From: Escherichia coli
Lineage (GTDB): Bacteria > Pseudomonadota > Gammaproteobacteria > Enterobacterales > Enterobacteriaceae
Assembly: GCF_002854065.1 (NCBI RefSeq)
Contig: NZ_CP024147.1
Strand: one strand, 5' to 3'
DNA: 64,000 bases
Notes under the pieces: generated by a model
What the model was told of the DNA's origin: nothing
The model's database searches: none
What the model saw: the letters and a program-made list of their open reading frames with translations, nothing else
In this document: positions 1,389 to 56,118 of the stretch, one piece after another
Position numbering within the stretch: position 1 is the first letter of the stretch
Layout of the letters: each line of letters opens with the position of its first letter
Program-made: the position numbers and the translations under genes

Positions 1389-3215
1389 TCAGGCTCCTCG
1401 TGAAACAATAATCACCACCAGTACCGCCAGTTCAACCAGCGCCATCCGGCGGAACAGCAACGCACTCCCCTCGCACTGCCAGCCCGGCACCAGCGACACC
1501 GGATTCAGCCATTTGCGCAGTTTCAGCACCGGCGCAAACGCCTGTTTCACCGGCATGGCAAAACCGTGAGCGGTAATCACCATTGATTTTTCGTGGTCGT
1601 AACCGCACACCCAGGCCGCACCGCGGGAACGCGATGGCAAACGATCGCCTTTGCAAATCGCCATAATGATGAATGGCAGCAGCGGGCAGGCAATCAGCAG
1701 CAACGTGATCATCGGTTGAGAAACGGTGGTGTTAGCAGGCTCCAGCGGCAGAGGTACAGCAGCAGACAGCATCGGCAGCAGCCACGGCGCAGCAACACCG
1801 CCAATTACGCAGCAAATCGCCAGTGCCACTACGCTTACGCTCATCAGGAGCGGCGCACAGGTGGCGTTTTCGGCTTCTTTGGTACGCGGCGCGCCGAGGA
1901 ACGTGACGCCATAGACTTTCGCCATACACATAACCGCCAGCGCACCGGTAATTGCCAGCCCCACAGCGAGCAGCGGCCCCAGCAGACGTGCAACAAACGC
2001 GCCACTATTGCTCAGTTTGAAAAAGGATTGATAGATAACCCATTCCCCGGCAAACCCGTTCAGCGGCGGCAGCGCAGCCATTGCCATCAACCCGACTAAC
2101 ATGGCGATGGAGATAACCGGCATTTTCTTGCCAATACCACCGAGTTTTTCGATATCGCGATGACCGGTACGGAACCAGACGCTCCCCGCCCCGAGGAACA
2201 GTACGCTTTTGAACAGGCTATGGTTAAGCAGATGGTACAGACCACCGACCAGGCCAAGAGCAATCAGCGCCGGTTGTTCGAGCGCGATACCCGTTACGCC
2301 AGCGCCCAGCCCCAGCAGGATAATGCCGATATTTTCCAGGGTGTGGTAAGCCAGTAGACGCTGGATGTTATGCTCCATCAGCGCATACAGACCACCGACG
2401 AACGCGGTGATCATACCGAGCACCAGCAGCGCGATCCCCCACCACAGCGGTGCATTACCACCCAGCAGCGACAGGGTTAAAATGCCCAGCAGGCCAATTT
2501 TCATGACTACCGTAGAAAACAACGCGGCAGCTGGCGCAGAGGCGTTCGCATGTGCCTGCGGCACCCAGCCGTGCAGCGGAATAATCCCGGCCAGCAGGCC
2601 AAAGCCAATCACACCGAGCAGCCAGATATCGGAACCGAGCGGCAGCTGTTGCATACGCATATCCAGCAGGCGCAGATCCAGCGTGCCGTAACGCTGCCAC
2701 AGCAGCCAGCAAGCAATCGCCAGCAGCAGAGTGCCAAGACGCCCCAGCGCAAACCACAGTTTGCCCTCTTTGCTGTTGTTGGTGAGGAACACCGCACACA
2801 AGGCCATGACTTCAGCCATTACCACGAACATGCCGAGGTTGCTGGCGATGACGGCGCAGACGGCGGCAGCCATCAACATATTGATCTGCAAGCCGTTGCA
2901 CTTCACCTGCGCGTGGCGATGCCAGTCAATGTTGTAGAGGCTGACAAACAGACCGCACAGACCGAGCGTAATCAGCCAAATCGCGTTAAGCGGAGAGATT
3001 TGCACATCGTAGCTTACCAGCGACAGCGCACCGCTCACGCCAACCGCGCCAGTCAGTACTGTGAAGCCCGCTGCTGCCGTATACAGACTACCAACCGCGC
3101 CGCCAATTCCGGCTATCCAGCCGCTTAGCGCCTTTTGAAAAGAAAAGAGAAATGCCAGAACAGCGGCGGCGACAAACCACGCCACGCCGCTATTGATCAG
3201 GGAAATTGCGCTCAT
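1389..3215 (-). CDS. hycC: Formate hydrogenlyase membrane subunit HycC (NuoL/MnhA-like)
   Basis: 608-aa ORF, antiporter-like membrane protein, operon context. Confidence 0.9.
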   Translation of the reverse strand: MSAISLINSGVAWFVAAAVLAFLFSFQKALSGWIAGIGGAVGSLYTAAAGFTVLTGAVGVSGALSLVSYDVQISPLNAIWLITLGLCGLFVSLYNIDWHRHAQVKCNGLQINMLMAAAVCAVIASNLGMFVVMAEVMALCAVFLTNNSKEGKLWFALGRLGTLLLAIACWLLWQRYGTLDLRLLDMRMQQLPLGSDIWLLGVIGFGLLAGIIPLHGWVPQAHANASAPAAALFSTVVMKIGLLGILTLSLLGGNAPLWWGIALLVLGMITAFVGGLYALMEHNIQRLLAYHTLENIGIILLGLGAGVTGIALEQPALIALGLVGGLYHLLNHSLFKSVLFLGAGSVWFRTGHRDIEKLGGIGKKMPVISIAMLVGLMAMAALPPLNGFAGEWVIYQSFFKLSNSGAFVARLLGPLLAVGLAITGALAVMCMAKVYGVTFLGAPRTKEAENATCAPLLMSVSVVALAICCVIGGVAAPWLLPMLSAAVPLPLEPANTTVSQPMITLLLIACPLLPFIIMAICKGDRLPSRSRGAAWVCGYDHEKSMVITAHGFAMPVKQAFAPVLKLRKWLNPVSLVPGWQCEGSALLFRRMALVELAVLVVIIVSRGA

Positions 3216-3823
3216 TTAGCCTCTCCACTTTGAGCCTGCTGAAACAAGGTGAGATCGCCAAAGTCCGTGTTAAAGGTCAGCTCACGCTTACGTTTGCTGA
3301 CGCGGGCGATATCGGTGTTATCCACCAGATGCAGGGCTTTAGTCGGGCACATCCGCACGCAGGCCGGACCTTGTTCATCAAAGCTACAAAGGTCACATTT
3401 GACGGCGATCGCGCGAATACCTGGCACCCAGTCAAGCAATGTGCTGACACGCGCCGGAGCAGGCGGTGCCGGTGGCGCTTTCGGGGTATTGGCGTTTGCC
3501 GGAATATCCAGCGGACGGCTGCCGGAAAATTCGATTGCGCCAAACGGGCAGGCGATGCCGCACAGTTTGCAGCTTACGCACAGACTTTCATTCAACTGCA
3601 CGGCCCCATCAACGCGGGTGATGGCGTTAACCGGGCAGACCACCGCGCAGGGTGCATCTTCACAGTGGTGACAGAGCTGCGGCGCAGATTCTTTTTCATT
3701 GAGCATCACTCTCAGGCGCGGCATTGATTGCAGGCCGTGCTGGCGATGCGTCTCTGAACAGGCGGCCTCACAAGTGTGGCAACCGATACAGAGCGTGGAG
3801 TCAGCAATTACAAAACGATTCAC
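3212..3823 (-). CDS. hycB: Formate hydrogenlyase 4Fe-4S ferredoxin-type subunit HycB
   Basis: 203-aa ORF with multiple CxxCxxCxxxCP motifs; overlaps hycC start. Confidence 0.9.
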   Translation of the reverse strand: MNRFVIADSTLCIGCHTCEAACSETHRQHGLQSMPRLRVMLNEKESAPQLCHHCEDAPCAVVCPVNAITRVDGAVQLNESLCVSCKLCGIACPFGAIEFSGSRPLDIPANANTPKAPPAPPAPARVSTLLDWVPGIRAIAVKCDLCSFDEQGPACVRMCPTKALHLVDNTDIARVSKRKRELTFNTDFGDLTLFQQAQSGEAK

Positions 3824-3871
3824 CAGGCATTCCTCAGGTGATTGTCATTTTTGACGAAAACATGCCGATGA

Positions 3872-3900
3872 AATGTCATTTTCGACACTCATCGACACGC
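3872..3900. promoter_or_regulatory. Repeated TCGACA motifs, candidate FhlA upstream activating sequence
   Basis: gtcattttcgacactcatcgacacg seen in hycB-hycA spacer; resembles motif at 4512-4550. Confidence 0.3.
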
Positions 3901-3947
3901 CCATCCCCAAACAGGCGTAACGCCTGCAAAACGGGCAAAGCCTCAGC

Positions 3948-4409
3948 TCATGCTGCCGGGCTTTGTCCCTTTACCAGTTGGCTTAAATTCACCGGCACAT
4001 TGTTTTCAATGGCGGTGTATAAGCTGTCGTAAACGCCAGCGATTTTTTCGAGATAGTGTTCCAGAACCTGTTCGCGATCGCGGATGTTGACCTTGCCATC
4101 AATCATGCCGTCAATGCTCAGTTGCGCCTGCGCAATCCGCTGTTTGTCTTCGCCATCTTTTGTTTCGACGTAATACTCGATGGTGTGGCTGTTAAAGCCA
4201 TCCGCCAGGGTGACGTAAATACGAAAATGTTCAAAAAGGACGAAACAGAGTTCTTTGTCCGGCGCGCAGCTCATGGCGTGATGCAGGCGCGCTTTCGATA
4301 ACGTGATCCCCTGAACCAGCGAATTGCAGTAGATGTGCCACTGGTCCTGTAGGCGACGATGCCGCTGTGCGATGTAATCGGCTTTCTCGCTTATTTCCCA
4401 AATAGTCAT
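3948..4409 (-). CDS. hycA: Formate hydrogenlyase regulatory protein HycA
   Basis: 153-aa ORF, first gene of hyc operon, divergent from hypA. Confidence 0.9.
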   Translation of the reverse strand: MTIWEISEKADYIAQRHRRLQDQWHIYCNSLVQGITLSKARLHHAMSCAPDKELCFVLFEHFRIYVTLADGFNSHTIEYYVETKDGEDKQRIAQAQLSIDGMIDGKVNIRDREQVLEHYLEKIAGVYDSLYTAIENNVPVNLSQLVKGQSPAA

Positions 4410-4445
4410 TGTCAGGTTACCCGTTTAACAGAGATGCCAGCTTTA

Positions 4446-4461
4446 AGCATTTTTTGTGCCA
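4446..4461 (-). promoter_or_regulatory. Candidate sigma54 promoter (-24 TGGCAC / -12 TGC) for hyc operon
   Basis: Minus strand reads TGGCACAAAAAATGCT upstream of hycA. Confidence 0.45.
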
Positions 4462-47394: not shown

Positions 47395-48180
47395 TTAGCG
47401 CACTAAATAACCGCCATCAACTACTAATAAATGCCCGTTGACATAATTCGATGCCGGACTTGCGAGGAATACGGCTGCGCCCATTAAATCCTGAGTATCG
47501 CCCCAACGGTTTGCCGGAATATGATCAAGAACGCGCTGATTGGTTTCTGGATTACTACGTGTCGCCAGCGTAATATCTGTTGCATAATAGCCAGGGGCGA
47601 TACCATTTACCTGAATATTATATTGACCTAGTTCATCACAATAAGCTTTGGTGAACCCGGCAAGAGCATGTTTAGTGGCAGAATATGCAGGTGACCATTG
47701 TCCACCTAAGTAAGAGAATAATGAACAGATATTAATTATTTTACCGCTTTTCTGCGGGATCATAATTTTTGCCGCTTCATAGCTTAACTCGAATGCGGCG
47801 GTCAGGTTCACATCAATCATCGGGTCCCAGTCGGCACGACCGAAGTCCAGCACCTTATTCAGCTTACAAATACCGGCATTGTTAACCAGAATATCGACGG
47901 TACCGAAACGTTCGCAACAGGCGGCGATTATCTTCTGCGGCGCGCCTTCTGCGGTGATATCCACCTGCATGAAGTCCACCTCAACACCCTGTTTTTCAAT
48001 CATTTCCTTTGTTTCGCCGTTATCTTTGACGAAGCTAGGAATAAAGACATTTGCGCCTGCTTTGGCCAACGCCATGGCAAATGCCTGGCCTAAACCGCTA
48101 TTCCCGCCGGTAACAATTGCGGTTTTACCTTTCAGGGAGAAAAAATCCATTGAGAACGCATTGAGAGATTCGATTGACAT
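47395..48180 (-). CDS. ygcW: Short-chain dehydrogenase/reductase
   Basis: Start at MSIESLNAF inside longer ORF; TGGNSGLG cofactor motif; 261 aa. Confidence 0.8.
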   Translation of the reverse strand: MSIESLNAFSMDFFSLKGKTAIVTGGNSGLGQAFAMALAKAGANVFIPSFVKDNGETKEMIEKQGVEVDFMQVDITAEGAPQKIIAACCERFGTVDILVNNAGICKLNKVLDFGRADWDPMIDVNLTAAFELSYEAAKIMIPQKSGKIINICSLFSYLGGQWSPAYSATKHALAGFTKAYCDELGQYNIQVNGIAPGYYATDITLATRSNPETNQRVLDHIPANRWGDTQDLMGAAVFLASPASNYVNGHLLVVDGGYLVR

Positions 48181-51694: not shown

Positions 51695-52366
51695 TCAGGC
51701 AATATTTAAATATTTATGGGTTTGCATCGACAAACGCCAATTACGCGCAATGCAGGTTTCAATGCACAAACGTGTGGCATCATCCTTTTGGCTAATCGGC
51801 TGCAGTGCAATGACTCGCGGTTTATCATCGGTCAGCGTCGCCAAAAGTTCATCCAGTGCTTCAATATCACGTACGCGTCCCACTGGATGCTTGATTTCGT
51901 TGGCTCGCTCCAGTGCCTGTGACAACACTTCATAGCCGCCGCGCATGTTCAGCTTTGGCGATACGGTAACCCAGGTATTCGGTGTACAGCGTACTTCATG
52001 AGTACCACTGGTTTCGATCTGGCAGCTAAAACCGTTCTTTTCGAGCAGGTCAGTCAGTGGTAGCAAATCATGAATGCAAGGCTCACCACCCGTAATCACC
52101 ACATGCCGCGCGGTGTATCCCTGGCGACCAATGACAGCCAGCAAGTCTTCACTGCTCGCCGCCCCCCACTTATCACTCTCTTTGGTCTTCGCCAGAATGC
52201 TGAAAAGGGAGACTTCCCGATCCTCAAGCTTTTCCCAGGTGTGTTTGGTGTCGCACCAGGCACAGCCAACCGGGCATCCCTGTAAACGAATAAAAATGGC
52301 GGGGACGCCGGTAAAGTAACCCTCACCTTGCAGGGTCTGGAACATCTCGTTAATCGGGTACTGCAT
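51695..52366 (-). CDS. queE: 7-carboxy-7-deazaguanine synthase (radical SAM)
   Basis: 223-aa ORF with CxxxCxxC-type radical-SAM cysteine cluster. Confidence 0.9.
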   Translation of the reverse strand: MQYPINEMFQTLQGEGYFTGVPAIFIRLQGCPVGCAWCDTKHTWEKLEDREVSLFSILAKTKESDKWGAASSEDLLAVIGRQGYTARHVVITGGEPCIHDLLPLTDLLEKNGFSCQIETSGTHEVRCTPNTWVTVSPKLNMRGGYEVLSQALERANEIKHPVGRVRDIEALDELLATLTDDKPRVIALQPISQKDDATRLCIETCIARNWRLSMQTHKYLNIA

Positions 52367-52520
52367 AGCATTCTCTGTGAAGTGGATAATTGTTAATTAT
52401 TGCAGATCCTGCCGCAACAATCATGTCTTATTAACATTCTGTTACAGGCAGGTTTAAGGCAAAAAGTGCATTAGATCATAAAGAATAAAATGAAGCGGCG
52501 TATTATGTTTTAAGGAATTA

Positions 52521-52692
52521 ATGAAAAAGGATTTAAACATGCTCAGGATATTCATCGTAATTATATTTATTTTCAATTTATCAGGCTGTGGATATAACGA
52601 TATTCAAACCTATGATGAGCAGGTTAACGCCTCCTGGTCTGAGGTATTAAATCAATATCAACGTCGCGCCGATCTTATTCCTAATCTTGTCG
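52521..52692 (+). pseudogene. LemA-family lipoprotein gene, 5' fragment truncated by IS1
   Basis: AAGGA RBS; MKKDLNMLRIFIVIIFIFNLSGCGYN... with LSGC lipobox; reading frame runs into IS1 left end after 57 codons. Confidence 0.6.
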
Positions 52693-52747
52693 GGTGATGC
52701 TGCCAACTTACTGATTTAGTGTATGATGGTGTTTTTGAGGTGCTCCA

Positions 52748-53023
52748 GTGGCTTCTGTTTCTATCAGCTGTCCCTCCTGTTCAGCTACTGACGGGGTGGT
52801 GCGTAACGGCAAAAGCACTGCCGGACATCAGCGCTATCTCTGCTCTCACTGCCGTAAAACATGGCAACTGCAGTTCACTTACACCGCTTCTCAACCCGGT
52901 ACGCACCAGAAAATCATTGATATGGCCATGAATGGCGTTGGATGCCGGGCAACCGCCCGCATTATGGGCGTTGGCCTCAACACGATTTTCCGCCATTTAA
53001 AAAACTCAGGCCGCAGTCGGTAA
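52748..53023 (+). CDS. insA: IS1 InsA
   Basis: 91 aa [21 protein letters not shown]..., GTG start. Confidence 0.9.
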
Positions 53024-53445
53024 CCTCGCGCATACAGCCGGGCAGTGACGTCATCGTCTGCGCGGAAATGGACGAACAGTGGGGATACGTCGGGGCTAAA
53101 TCGCGCCAGCGCTGGCTGTTTTACGCGTATGACAGGCTCCGGAAGACGGTTGTTGCGCACGTATTCGGTGAACGCACTATGGCGACGCTGGGGCGTCTTA
53201 TGAGCCTGCTGTCACCCTTTGACGTGGTGATATGGATGACGGATGGCTGGCCGCTGTATGAATCCCGCCTGAAGGGAAAGCTGCACGTAATCAGCAAGCG
53301 ATATACGCAGCGAATTGAGCGGCATAACCTGAATCTGAGGCAGCACCTGGCACGGCTGGGACGGAAGTCGCTGTCGTTCTCAAAATCGGTGGAGCTGCAT
53401 GACAAAGTCATCGGGCATTATCTGAACATAAAACACTATCAATAA
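52942..53445 (+). CDS. insB: IS1 InsB (transposase C-terminal part, expressed as InsAB' by -1 frameshift)
   Basis: 167-aa ORF in -1 frame relative to insA, recognised IS1 InsB. Confidence 0.85.
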
Positions 53446-53462
53446 GTTGGAGTCATTACCTG

Positions 53463-53846
53463 ATGCTGGCCCCAAAAAATAAAAACGCTAAAGTGAAAAA
53501 ACAAAAGAAGACTCCGCAGGTTCGTGAATCAGGACGAAATTCATTGTTTGTCGTGATGCTGATAATTATTGTGGGATGGTGCCTGGTGTTCGCCAGTATT
53601 AAAGATATTGCATTCATCTCAACAATTATTGGGTTAATTGATCATTTTATCGGTCCAATAACCATTGCTGGCATCGTTCTGCTGATCATTGTGGCCAAAT
53701 TTACTGGCAATCTTAAGCTGGGATCAGGAGAAAAAAGCAACAGGAAAACGGGGAATCGTAATGCTCACTCTCGCTCTTCGTCGAGAAATTCTTTCCGCGG
53801 TGGTGGCGGTTCTTCAGGAGGCGGCGGTTCATCCGGCCGTTGGTGA
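53463..53846 (+). pseudogene. 3' fragment of a TPM-domain/YgcG-like membrane protein gene, lacking its 5' end
   Basis: Begins immediately after IS1 right end; two TM helices and GGGGSSGGGGSSGRW tail paralogous to ygcG C-terminus. Confidence 0.5.
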
Positions 53847-53851
53847 TCGTA

Positions 53852-54745
53852 ATGCGCTTAATCTTTATTCTATTCACTTTGTGGTGTCTTCCTGGGCTTG
53901 CCCAGCAAATTGCTGTGCCAGAACTGCGCCAACAGGTGACCGATATTACTGGTACGTTAAGCACTTCTGAACAACAATCACTGACACAGCAACTGCAGGA
54001 TATTACACATAAAACACGGGCGCAGGTCGCTGTATTAGTAGTGCCGTCTACCGGAGACGATTCCATTGAACAATATGCTACAAGGGTTTTTGATAGCTGG
54101 AAACTGGGAGATAAGCAGAGAAACGATGGTATTTTACTTCTGGTTGCCTGGGAGGATCATGCTGTTCGTATTGAGGTTGGCTACGGGCTGGAAGGGGTGG
54201 TTACCAACCTGCAAGCGGCGAAGATTATCAGGGATATATTGATCCCTGCCTTCAAAAGTGATGACCTGATGGGTGGATTAACACTGGCAAGCGAAAATAT
54301 CGGCGCACTTCTGTTGAATGGTGAATTACCGGAAGACAGGGGGGATTATTACAGTATCAATCCCCCTATTCCATTATCGCTTGCTGTAATTATATTGCTG
54401 GCGGTACTTTCATATTTTATTGTTTTTACCGATCCGTCGAATTTACCCTGGATCACTCTCACTGGCGCCATTTACGGGATGGTATTCCTCTATGTTGCCG
54501 AGCCAGGACCATGGACCAATTTAATCGTTGCCTGCGGTATGTTAACGCCTTTTGCGATCGTACCACTGGTTATTTTTTGGCTTATCGTCAATAAAAAGCT
54601 ACGCGCCAAATACAAAAAACTCAGTAAAGAAAGAGCTACAAGAAAAGGTTCTTCTTCATCCTCTTCCGGTGGAGGCTCAAGTGGCGGCGGATTTAGCGGC
54701 GGGGGCGGTTCTTCTGGAGGTGGCGGCGCATCCGGCCGCTGGTAA
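53852..54745 (+). CDS. ygcG: TPM-domain protein YgcG with signal peptide and Gly/Ser-rich C-terminal tail
   Basis: Start at MRLIFILFTLWCLPGLAQQ; TPM domain, TM helices, ends GGGSSGGGFSGGGGSSGGGGASGRW. Confidence 0.75.
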   Translation: MRLIFILFTLWCLPGLAQQIAVPELRQQVTDITGTLSTSEQQSLTQQLQDITHKTRAQVAVLVVPSTGDDSIEQYATRVFDSWKLGDKQRNDGILLLVAWEDHAVRIEVGYGLEGVVTNLQAAKIIRDILIPAFKSDDLMGGLTLASENIGALLLNGELPEDRGDYYSINPPIPLSLAVIILLAVLSYFIVFTDPSNLPWITLTGAIYGMVFLYVAEPGPWTNLIVACGMLTPFAIVPLVIFWLIVNKKLRAKYKKLSKERATRKGSSSSSSGGGSSGGGFSGGGGSSGGGGASGRW

Positions 54746-54754
54746 CTCAACCAT

Positions 54755-54785
54755 AAAAAATGCCAGCCCGGAGGCTGGCATTTTT
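54755..54785. terminator. Bidirectional intrinsic terminator between ygcG and eno
   Basis: aaaaaatgccagcc-cgga-ggctggcattttt. Confidence 0.45.
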
Positions 54786-54804
54786 AAATCAGATAAAGTC
54801 AGTC

Positions 54805-56118
<1,314 letters not shown>

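Follow-up and report, generated by a model that had tools for sequence, protein, structure and literature searches.

The window, i.e., the entire stretch of 64,000 nucleotides of Escherichia coli DNA analyzed here, holds an accessory E. coli operon in a decayed state, in the slot between queE and eno, as found by sequence comparison with the O157 locus. On the plus strand, this slot contains a lemA 5' stub of 57 codons (positions 52521 to 52692, in an ORF spanning 52521-52697), an IS1B-like IS1 element of 768 bp (52693 to 53460), the 3' remnant of a second TPM gene (TPM2; from within codon 255 through codon 382 and the stop; 53461 to 53846) and an intact third TPM paralogue (TPM3, i.e., ygcG, of the YgcG family; 53843 to 54745). 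Between the convergent genes ygcG and eno lies a hairpin with no assigned strand (54756 to 54785), whose 13-bp stem stands between an A-run and a T-run; with a minimum free energy of -20.3 kcal/mol (z = -5.7; none of 200 shuffles folded equally well), it is probably a bidirectional intrinsic terminator for both genes. RefSeq already lists the genes under the names LemA family, TPM domain-containing or YgcG family protein, and the damage to them is ordinary genome decay.

The lemA stub is collinear with O157 lemA, and the DNA at 52300-52692 aligns with positions 475-867 of the O157 locus (L002) at 97.5% identity. The stub encodes a lipoprotein signal peptide with the lipobox LSGC, followed by the first 20 residues of the LemA domain; its frame reads two codons into IS1 and ends at a TGA at 52695-52697. 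Its score against the Pfam LemA profile PF04011 (23.8 bits, profile positions 1-20 only) is below the cut-off of 26.2, and it is assigned as the 5' end of lemA by its collinearity with the intact gene, which reaches 163 bits. The adjoining IS1 is bounded by terminal inverted repeats and contains insA (52748-53023) and the insAB' frameshift coding sequence (52748-53445), with Pfam matches to InsA (E = 1.7e-30 and 3e-21) and DDE_Tnp_IS1 (E = 2.3e-78). Thousands of element-length matches annotated as IS1B are present in E. coli genomes at 99-100% identity, and cover query positions 294-1061, which correspond to window positions 52693-53460.

From position 53461 onward, the window is again collinear with the O157 locus, from position 3001 onward of the latter (97.7% identity; window 53461-54900 corresponds to positions 3001-4452). 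The ORF at 53463-53846 starts with ATG at 53463 and encodes 127 amino acids ending in ...NSFRGGGGSSGGGGSSGRW before the stop; it represents residues 256-382 of the 382-amino-acid O157 protein WP_001217990, to which it is identical at 124 of 127 positions (three substitutions). Its product has a basic N-terminus, two hydrophobic helices and a basic/Ser-rich linker, followed by GGGGSSGGGGSSGRW; the terminal motif itself, RGGGGSSGGGGSSGRW, is encoded at 53796 to 53843 on the plus strand. Pfam and NCBIfam profile searches found no TPM domain in this ORF, because the part encoding it has been deleted; in the full-length O157 orthologue, Pfam places the domain at residues 23-149 (76.6 bits; E = 2.1e-21). 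Fusion of the remnant with the IS1 transposase was ruled out by an in-frame stop at 53400-53402 inside IS1.

The downstream gene, ygcG, can be read from an ATG at 53852; RefSeq places the start at a GTG at 53843, where it and the remnant's TGA stop overlap as GTGA, and the stop codon of ygcG occupies 54743-54745. Counted from the GTG, YgcG has 300 amino acids and ends in ...FSGGGGSSGGGGASGRW. Its signal peptide is followed by the TPM domain (residues 29-152 when numbered from the ATG) and three transmembrane helices; a basic/Ser-rich linker then leads to the terminal motif SGGGGSSGGGGASGRW (plus strand, 54695 to 54742). The match to Pfam TPM_phosphatase (PF04536) covers profile positions 1-124 of 125 and, at 128.8 bits (E = 1.5e-37), is well above the cut-off of 22.1. 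The gene differs from the coding sequence of the 300-amino-acid RefSeq protein WP_136747877.1 of strain CUWW06 by one synonymous base (53920). The earlier note had held that only the downstream copy is intact and that both ORFs end in a transmembrane segment followed by GGGGSSGGGG(S/A)SGRW, and translation confirmed the endings as well as the difference in completeness. It had further described the two ORFs as tandem TPM-domain paralogues to be recognized by a Pfam search; the search detected the domain in ygcG and none in the remnant. As TPM_phosphatase was detected in ygcG, a lack of the domain from both ORFs can be set aside, and the description as paralogues stands; as the remnant has no TPM match of its own and its orthologue has one, this description draws on comparison with another genome rather than on the ORF itself.

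The intact locus has the order queE-lemA-TPM1-TPM2-TPM3-eno, with TPM1, TPM2 and TPM3 proteins of 297, 382 and 300-304 amino acids, respectively. In O157, LemA (206 amino acids; 163 bits, E = 5.1e-48) and the three TPM proteins (E = 1.2e-40, 2.1e-21 and 3e-38) all match their Pfam profiles. At least 80% of this four-gene locus was found in 1,103 of 5,426 E. coli genomes. The operon of O157:H7 and UTI89 (approx. 20% of complete E. coli genomes) is orthologous to that of the window and has the same flanking genes; the retained parts show 97-98% DNA identity, whereas the window lacks 2,133 bp, has gained IS1 and retains only TPM3 intact. The earlier note had counted one survivor among three components. 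The single survivor holds but the count does not, as the intact locus has four genes, of which one survives in the window; TPM1 is gone, and lemA and TPM2 are stubs. Likewise, the upstream ORF had correctly been called truncated, while the cause, IS1 plus a flanking 2,133-bp deletion, was absent from that description. Overall, the locus very likely represents a lemA-TPM1-TPM2-TPM3 operon wrecked by IS1 and the deletion next to it, and what is probably an assembly-type module is most likely disabled in this strain.

IS1 sits after codon 57 of lemA, i.e., at codon 58, and its two flanks differ (...AATCTTGTCG on the left, TGATGCTGG... on the right). Comparison of the flank sequences showed no target-site duplication around IS1, as is expected given that the deletion abuts its right end. 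Relative to the O157 locus, the deletion comprises 2,133 bp, begins exactly at the right end of IS1 and took codons 58-206 of lemA, the whole of TPM1 and the first 254 codons of TPM2. Strain CUWW06, with which the window shares 99.96-99.99% identity over 33 kb, has the identical IS1 and left junction, but is missing just positions 868-1072 of the O157 locus (205 bp); here, a second complete genome (strain 100416) shows no difference from CUWW06. The junction between IS1 and the remnant was absent among 5,426 complete E. coli genomes, but five further public contigs contain it with 100% identity, and an assembly artefact or a unique event was rejected. The same IS1 and left junction with different right ends means that one end is fixed while the other varies, a pattern that points to IS1-mediated adjacent deletion through intramolecular transposition. 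IS1 inserted after lemA codon 57 and probably itself, by intramolecular transposition, deleted DNA flush with its right end; either a CUWW06-like state was followed by a further deletion of 1,928 bp, or two independent deletions arose from a simple insertion.

IS1-mediated adjacent deletions are known from the classical deletions of the gal region in E. coli K-12. The window resembles these in that the deletion starts at an IS1 end, IS1 is retained and there is no target-site duplication, and the nested series with one fixed end (the window, CUWW06 and 100416) also has its classical counterpart, so that nothing about it is unusual. The locus is one more case of IS1 eroding a dispensable, strain-variable operon, and provides clean, datable nested IS1-adjacent deletions at a reported hotspot of mobile-element insertion.

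The same junction, again with a lone IS1 that lacks a target-site duplication, would result from homologous recombination of an IS1 in lemA with a second, directly repeated copy in TPM2. The region between queE and eno is indeed a recurrent IS1 target, with many independent IS1A and IS1B insertions in complete genomes, and ygcG has been listed as a replicated mobile-element insertion hotspot (bioRxiv 10.1101/527788). We nevertheless regard recombination as distinctly unlikely, because the same IS1 and left junction accompany two different right junctions (that of CUWW06 and 100416, and that of the window), recombination would require a separate second insertion for each deletion variant, and an IS1 at the TPM2 position was not found in any of the 5,426 complete E. 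coli genomes searched. A different question is whether the 127-amino-acid ORF left behind by the adjacent deletion is still alive, as a two-helix membrane protein that is expressed through read-through from IS1, carries the family's C-terminal motif and is coupled to ygcG through the GTGA overlap. The ORF is open, its ATG at 53463 has a GGAG 10 nt upstream (within the IS1 end), the overlap of its stop with the ygcG start has been kept, and the IS1/remnant junction is 100% identical in several independent assemblies. Such identity, however, reflects recent shared ancestry, not selection, and the ORF is simply an in-frame leftover of TPM2 that is matched by no family model in Pfam or NCBIfam; moreover, its precursor in the sister strain CUWW06 is a pseudogene already, as TPM2 carries the nonsense codon W203* there. 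A functional remnant therefore seems very unlikely, and the ORF is better read as debris of the deleted TPM2 gene.

As for ygcG, the surviving gene is left without its LemA partner, both paralogues and the native promoter, as IS1 now stands between promoter and ygcG. A promoter scan for ygcG yielded 4 sites, as compared to 3.9 expected from shuffled sequence. The LemA-TPM module is probably disabled in the window.

Pairs of LemA and TPM-domain genes had been called a widespread module in the earlier note, and this was borne out: of 8 distant loci (representatives approx. 32-42% identical to the window protein), 7 have lemA next to the YgcG-type TPM gene, the exception being L019, and about 21,900 cluster representatives gave a match at E <= 0.001. 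LemA is predicted to be a lipoprotein whose helical bundle faces the periplasm, and the TPM proteins to consist of a signal peptide, a periplasmic alpha/beta TPM domain, three membrane helices (five in TPM2), a basic/Ser-rich cytoplasmic linker and the almost invariant C-terminal motif. Intact O157 LemA matches the structure of Thermotoga maritima TM0961 (PDB 2etd; E = 8e-32); its similarity to MamQ is weak, and at 89.8 bits against the equivalog cut-off of 250 for NCBIfam MamQ (NF040966), it is not a MamQ equivalog. Compared to other members of its family (TM0961, Listeria LemA and the magnetosome protein MamQ), E. coli LemA has a lipobox instead of a transmembrane anchor, and only 57 codons of it are left in the window. 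MamQ is the sole LemA-family member tied to a cellular process (PMC4902198), and no functional study of E. coli LemA or YgcG was found in the literature searched for LemA plus TPM and for ygcG. Modules of LemA and YgcG-type TPM proteins are very common, with lemA tightly linked to the TPM gene and a strikingly conserved motif; natural partial knock-outs such as this strain, together with relatives that have 4, 2 or 1 genes, are thus handy material for investigating the role of the module.

The TPM core of YgcG was modelled by AlphaFold with a pLDDT of 94-98, and Foldseek matched the fold to BA41 (5anp; target-normalised TM-score 0.92, 28% identity) and 7tbr (0.90, 34% identity), and also to TLP18.3 and Psb32; further matches were PG0361, BA42, LMTP1 and, in the mycobacterial supercomplex, its TPM subunit (8hcr_J, 6adq_J, 6hwh_O). 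With NCBIfam Psb32 (NF047379), YgcG shares the fold only (29.9 bits; equivalog cut-off 160). TPM proteins have been argued to be chaperone-like factors in the assembly of membrane complexes rather than phosphatases (Ravi et al. 2024, PMC11237479; Burroughs et al. 2025, PMC12419801); the Campylobacter jejuni TPM protein CcoZ is required for full activity of the cbb3 oxidase (PMC8267372), and Psb32 binds a late assembly intermediate of photosystem II (bioRxiv 10.1101/2025.05.08.652833). By analogy with solved TPM proteins, which occupy the lumenal or periplasmic side in photosystem II (Psb32/TLP18.3) and in the mycobacterial CIII2CIV2 supercomplex, the intact module is probably an extracytoplasmic, membrane-anchored factor that acts, with LemA, in the assembly or maintenance of membrane protein complexes or of the envelope. 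Psb32/TLP18.3, the CIII2CIV2 subunit and CcoZ share the TPM fold (Foldseek probability 1.0), the extracytoplasmic site and the membrane anchor with YgcG, but they are only 17-20% identical to it, and none has been reported with a Gly-rich terminal motif or a LemA partner.

The closest solved bacterial TPM structures, i.e., BA41 and BA42 of Bizionia argentinensis, PG0361 and Rhom172_1776, are soluble domains only, with in vitro phosphatase or ATPase activities of uncertain relevance. They bring into play the alternative that TPM proteins are periplasmic acid phosphatases or nucleotidases, and that the module hydrolyses a phosphorylated envelope substrate and has no role in assembly. This would agree with the Pfam name and with reported in vitro activities (phosphatase for TLP18.3 and BA42, ATPase/ADPase for BA41); BA41 is also the structure closest to YgcG, and a 68-sequence alignment shows invariant polar residues in the TPM core (D31, E73, R106, E108, E114 and D119). 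The reported activity of the plant homologue is low, however, both papers cited above judged a phosphatase role unlikely, and the TPM proteins solved within complexes are non-catalytic accessory subunits. An enzymatic role thus appears unlikely, and assembly or maintenance remains our preferred role for the module.

Both window ORFs end in hydrophobic helices (two in the remnant and three in YgcG, according to hydropathy and AlphaFold helices) and a basic stretch, followed by GGGGSSGGGG(S/A)SGRW; they thus carry, after membrane helices, the ending FSGGGGxxGGGGASGxW-COOH that characterizes YgcG-type proteins. Their last 16 residues are identical at 14 positions. TPM1 likewise ends in GGGGSSGGGGASGRW, so the tail is common to all three TPM paralogues. 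Of 139 family representatives (50%-identity clusters), 128 end in W, mostly as ...GGGGASG(S/R/G)W, and in the 68-sequence alignment (29-55% identity) the residues G283-G286, G289-G292, S294, G295 and W297 are at least 90% conserved. By this distribution, the Gly/Ser tail marks YgcG-family proteins in general and is not peculiar to the two copies in the window. Gene conversion between tandem copies, or a chance likeness of low-complexity sequence, would account for the shared tail without functional constraint; consistent with this, the tail DNA of the paralogues is more similar (79-85%; 85% between the 48 nt at 53797-53844 in the remnant and at 54696-54743 in ygcG) than their TPM-domain DNA (69-73%), and the copy number of the Gly/Ser repeat differs between alleles (300 vs. 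304 amino acids). Neither process fits a 17-residue motif ending in W that recurs in unrelated lineages (the 128 representatives above) and holds its conservation at each position even though the sequences are only about 30% identical overall, while the Ser/Gly-rich linker preceding it is not conserved. We therefore regard conversion or chance as extremely unlikely, and functional constraint on the tail as the better reading.

One highly tentative idea, drawn from structure models, is that FSGGGGxxGGGGASGxW-COOH may act as a docking peptide and contribute an extra beta-strand to the sheet of a TPM domain, i.e., that the TPM domain may bind C-terminal peptides in a PDZ-like manner. When YgcG was modelled with its TPM domain, AlphaFold placed the last 8 residues in a beta-strand (pLDDT of about 95), all other strands being within the TPM domain; in a model without the domain, the same residues were coil (pLDDT 44-55). 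The predicted topology, with a cytoplasmic tail and a periplasmic TPM domain, contradicts such docking; a crude hydropathy count across homologues (3 peaks in 51 sequences and 2 in 17) is too rough to place the tail. If docking were true, tandem paralogues could assemble or auto-regulate through contacts between tail and domain, and the TPM-less 127-amino-acid remnant, if expressed, would represent a free tail that could disturb such contacts. No description of the terminal motif (including "GGGASG") was found in the literature searched.

The locus is polymorphic among E. coli strains, and lies near a CRISPR array in some of them; no CRISPR array was found in the window between 48000 and 53000. 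PADLOC gave no match for LemA, TPM1, TPM2, TPM3 or the 120-amino-acid ORF of L004, and an anti-phage defence island was thus rejected. In O157, TPM1 has an in-frame TGA that is followed by 73 in-frame codons ending in the tail. Programmed read-through or selenocysteine incorporation was rejected for this codon, as the codon at this position encodes Leu in UTI89, CUWW06 and two other strains; judged from these alleles, the TGA is a nonsense mutation of the O157 lineage. The "missing C-terminus" flags that RefSeq attaches to full-length TPM1 look like an annotation artefact.

The K-12 protein YgcG (b2778; "YgcG family protein" at NCBI) occupies the same slot between queE and eno and has the same RefSeq names as the window gene. 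It also has the same architecture, with a signal peptide, a TPM domain, three hydrophobic helices and a Gly-rich tail ending in GGGGASGRW. The K-12-type allele, however, lacks lemA and has yqcG ahead of its only TPM gene, whereas the window gene is the third TPM gene of the allele with lemA and three TPM genes. Compared to the common 290-amino-acid E. coli allele (P0099), whose C-terminal half is K-12-like, window YgcG shows 59% identity overall and 73% over the first 160 residues. An envelope-stress entry given as "ygcG" in a sigma-S ChIP-seq paper probably refers to the neighbouring small gene yqcG, as judged from the yqcG annotation.

The open reading frame (ORF) at 53463-53846 (127 aa) ends in ...NSFRGGGGSSGGGGSSGRW, and the ygcG-like gene that follows it, which runs from 53852 (ATG) or 53843 (GTG, the RefSeq start) to 54745 and encodes 297 or 300 aa, respectively, ends in ...FSGGGGSSGGGGASGRW. 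In both ORFs, this Gly/Ser-rich tail follows hydrophobic helices and a stretch rich in Lys/Arg, as the earlier note had accurately described and located. The 48 nt encoding the tail (53796-53843 in the upstream ORF and 54695-54742 in ygcG) are 85% identical, as compared to just 69-73% DNA identity for the TPM-domain regions of the paralogues. Pfam searches detected a complete TPM domain in the downstream gene (residues 29-152; 128.8 bits, E = 1.5e-37), and neither Pfam nor NCBIfam detected a TPM domain in the upstream ORF. This ORF represents residues 256-382 of O157 TPM2, the second of three tandem TPM-domain paralogues, with 124 of the 127 residues identical; since these residues start downstream of the TPM domain, the remnant is a TPM paralogue by descent, with two helices and the tail left. 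The proposal of two TPM paralogues thus holds for the downstream gene by domain content and for the upstream ORF by ancestry only. The statement that only the downstream copy is intact was confirmed, as it encodes exactly the RefSeq protein WP_136747877.1 (the gene shows one synonymous difference at 53920) and the upstream ORF is a TPM2 fragment. Overall, the earlier interpretation is right in substance, with three corrections, i.e., to the number of genes, the cause of the truncation and the distribution of the tail, which is family-wide.

In the queE-eno interval of O157:H7 strain NE92, four genes in one orientation, lemA-TPM1-TPM2-TPM3, encode products of 206, 224, 382 and 304 aa, all of which exceed the Pfam cut-offs by a wide margin (LemA, E = 5.1e-48; TPM, E = 1.2e-40, 2.1e-21 and 3e-38, respectively). 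The three TPM paralogues show 37-48% overall identity to one another and have the tail in common; in O157, TPM1 (2002-2224 of the O157 reference locus, L002) has lost it through an in-frame TGA. UTI89 and three other alleles carry a Leu codon at this position, and the resulting 297-aa TPM1 ends in GGGGSSGGGGASGRW. The O157 comparison and the TPM1 tail in other alleles indicate that the ancestral module comprises lemA and three tandem TPM paralogues, four genes rather than the three components initially proposed. Full-length TPM1 proteins from UTI89 and elsewhere (comparison loci L006, 1001-1894, L005 and L004) are labelled "incomplete, missing C-terminus" in RefSeq, which looks like an annotation artefact derived from the truncated O157 protein model.

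Truncation of the upstream ORF was borne out, and its cause, an IS1 with an adjacent deletion, can be added. The 768-bp IS1 at 52693-53460 encodes InsA domains and DDE_Tnp_IS1 (E = 2.3e-78), has terminal inverted repeats and is matched at 99-100% identity by thousands of IS1B copies. Its left flank (52300-52692) corresponds to the O157 locus through lemA codon 57 (L002 475-867) and its right flank, from 53461, to L002 from 3001 onward; the element thus stands in for 2,133 bp, i.e., lemA codons 58-206, TPM1 and TPM2 codons 1-254. Comparison of the junction sequences revealed no target-site duplication at the IS1 flanks. Two complete E. coli genomes, CUWW06 (99.96-99.99% identity with the window across 33 kb) and 100416, carry the same IS1 with the same left junction, and their loss on the right is 205 bp of lemA (L002 868-1072). 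When an IS1 deletes adjacent DNA by intramolecular transposition, it characteristically leaves deletions of differing length flush with one of its ends. As the two unequal deletions, whose junctions can be read directly, both start flush at the same IS1 end, we infer that, after IS1 had inserted in lemA, intramolecular transposition removed adjoining DNA from its right end. Recombination between two IS1 copies could also have made the deletion; this is improbable, as it requires additional insertions, none of which were seen.

The junction that we attribute to adjacent deletion is real, as five other public contigs carry it at 100% identity; it was found in 0 of 5,426 complete E. coli genomes. 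The operon was in any case degenerating in this lineage, as TPM2 of CUWW06 is already interrupted by a nonsense mutation (W203*). CUWW06 also contains a second IS1, within an SDR oxidoreductase gene upstream of ygcU (which we take to be ygcW), at a site that is empty in the window (48027-48035). These positions form a 9-bp overlap of two BLAST segments against CUWW06, which would be the target duplication of the second IS1. The two are thus sister strains with one private IS1 event each after the shared lemA insertion. Among complete genomes, many independent IS1A or IS1B insertions in or beside lemA, yqcG or ygcG (genomes H73-H95) mark a recurrent IS1 target, in agreement with the published description of ygcG as a replicated mobile-element insertion hotspot in E. 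coli collections (bioRxiv 10.1101/527788). The feature represents ordinary IS-driven gene decay in a strain-variable operon that is already annotated.

Overlap of the ygcG GTG start with the TGA stop of the remnant points to translational coupling in the intact operon. IS1 now sits between ygcG and the native promoter upstream of lemA, and a promoter scan addressing ygcG expression did not outperform its shuffled controls. A remnant-transposase fusion was ruled out by an in-frame stop at 53400-53402. Between the convergent ygcG and eno genes, a strong hairpin at 54756-54785 has a 13-bp stem flanked by an A-run and a T-run (minimum free energy -20.3 kcal/mol, z = -5.7). It probably terminates transcription in both directions and is absent from the output of a consensus terminator scan.

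A whole-library HMMER search of representatives of 50%-identity clusters yielded 21,906 representatives at E <= 0.001. Among the best 139 of these with at least 240 aa, 128 showed a terminal Trp, their usual ending being ...FSGGGG(S/F/R)(S/F)GGGGASG(S/R/G)W. In an alignment of 68 sequences (29-55% identity), G283-286, G289-292, S294, G295 and W297 were at least 90% conserved; conservation of the motif equals that of the TPM core, while the preceding Ser/Gly-rich linker is not conserved. The terminal Trp and this positional conservation indicate that the tail, which had been considered as shared between the two window paralogues, is a feature of the entire YgcG family. A literature search found no paper describing an FSGGGGxxGGGGASGxW-COOH motif.

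LemA carries a lipobox (LSGC), and its helical bundle should therefore face the periplasm. In the TPM proteins, a signal peptide is followed by the TPM domain (AlphaFold pLDDT 94-98), three helices (3 + 2 in TPM2, with a loop bearing 11 Lys/Arg) and, after the last helix, 7-9 Lys/Arg in the tail; the positive-inside rule predicts a periplasmic TPM domain and a cytoplasmic tail. A crude survey found three hydrophobic peaks in 51 of 68 homologues. AlphaFold models the YgcG linker (260-283) as disordered and the last 8 residues as a beta-strand (pLDDT ~95), all other strands belonging to the TPM domain; when residues 165-297 were modelled alone, the same 8 residues formed a coil (pLDDT 44-55). 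As the strand appears only with the TPM domain present, AlphaFold appears to dock the end of the tail against the sheet of the TPM domain, a placement that conflicts with the predicted topology. The model leaves a small chance that TPM may bind C-terminal peptides.

LemA-TPM pairs are widespread, as previously noted; in 7 of the 8 distant loci compared, lemA lies directly beside a gene of the YgcG type, and the two families almost certainly act together. Locus L016 (GCA_000302695.1, 2310-6118) contains lemA (lipobox LTGC) and three TPM genes, each encoding the tail, beside pmbA and darP, a chromosomal site different from the E. coli queE-eno site; the four-gene module thus either predates its E. 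coli location or moved. Two other distant loci (L014, 3345-4004; L015, 5033-5689) include a third gene (218-219 aa) with a weak TPM match; its product has no signal peptide, is thus presumably cytoplasmic and could be a cytoplasmic partner of the tail.

Fold searches with the YgcG TPM domain matched BA41 (target-normalised TM-score 0.92), Rhom172_1776 and PG0361, as well as TLP18.3, Psb32, BA42, LMTP1 and the TPM subunit of the mycobacterial CIII2CIV2 supercomplex. TPM proteins of known cellular context serve membrane complexes as accessory or assembly factors on their extracytoplasmic side; Psb32 binds a late intermediate of photosystem II assembly (bioRxiv 10.1101/2025.05.08.652833) and CcoZ is required for full cbb3 oxidase activity (PMC8267372). 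Within the LemA family, only MamQ has been connected with a cellular process, magnetosome membrane biogenesis (PMC4902198). None of the module proteins matched PADLOC defence models. By analogy, our best inference is that the module, facing the periplasm, would serve in the assembly or maintenance of membrane complexes or the envelope. An enzymatic action of the module is possible; two comparative-genomics papers favour a chaperone-like assembly role and dispute a phosphatase role (PMC11237479; PMC12419801).

The queE-eno interval is polymorphic in E. coli. The form with lemA and three TPM genes occurs, at >=80% coverage, in 1,103 of 5,426 complete genomes (~20%); other forms carry lemA and TPM1 upstream of an unrelated membrane ORF of 120 aa (L004) or, in the K-12 type, yqcG and ygcG with no lemA (L003). 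Mosaic alleles also exist, e.g., P0099, a YgcG allele in which the N-terminal ~80 residues resemble TPM3 and the remainder resembles the K-12 form. A sigma-S ChIP-seq peak was reported in the K-12 queE/ygcG intergenic region, with "ygcG" described as a small envelope-stress protein (PMC4447067); as RefSeq annotates yqcG as a cell envelope stress response protein, the gene meant is probably the adjacent small gene yqcG.
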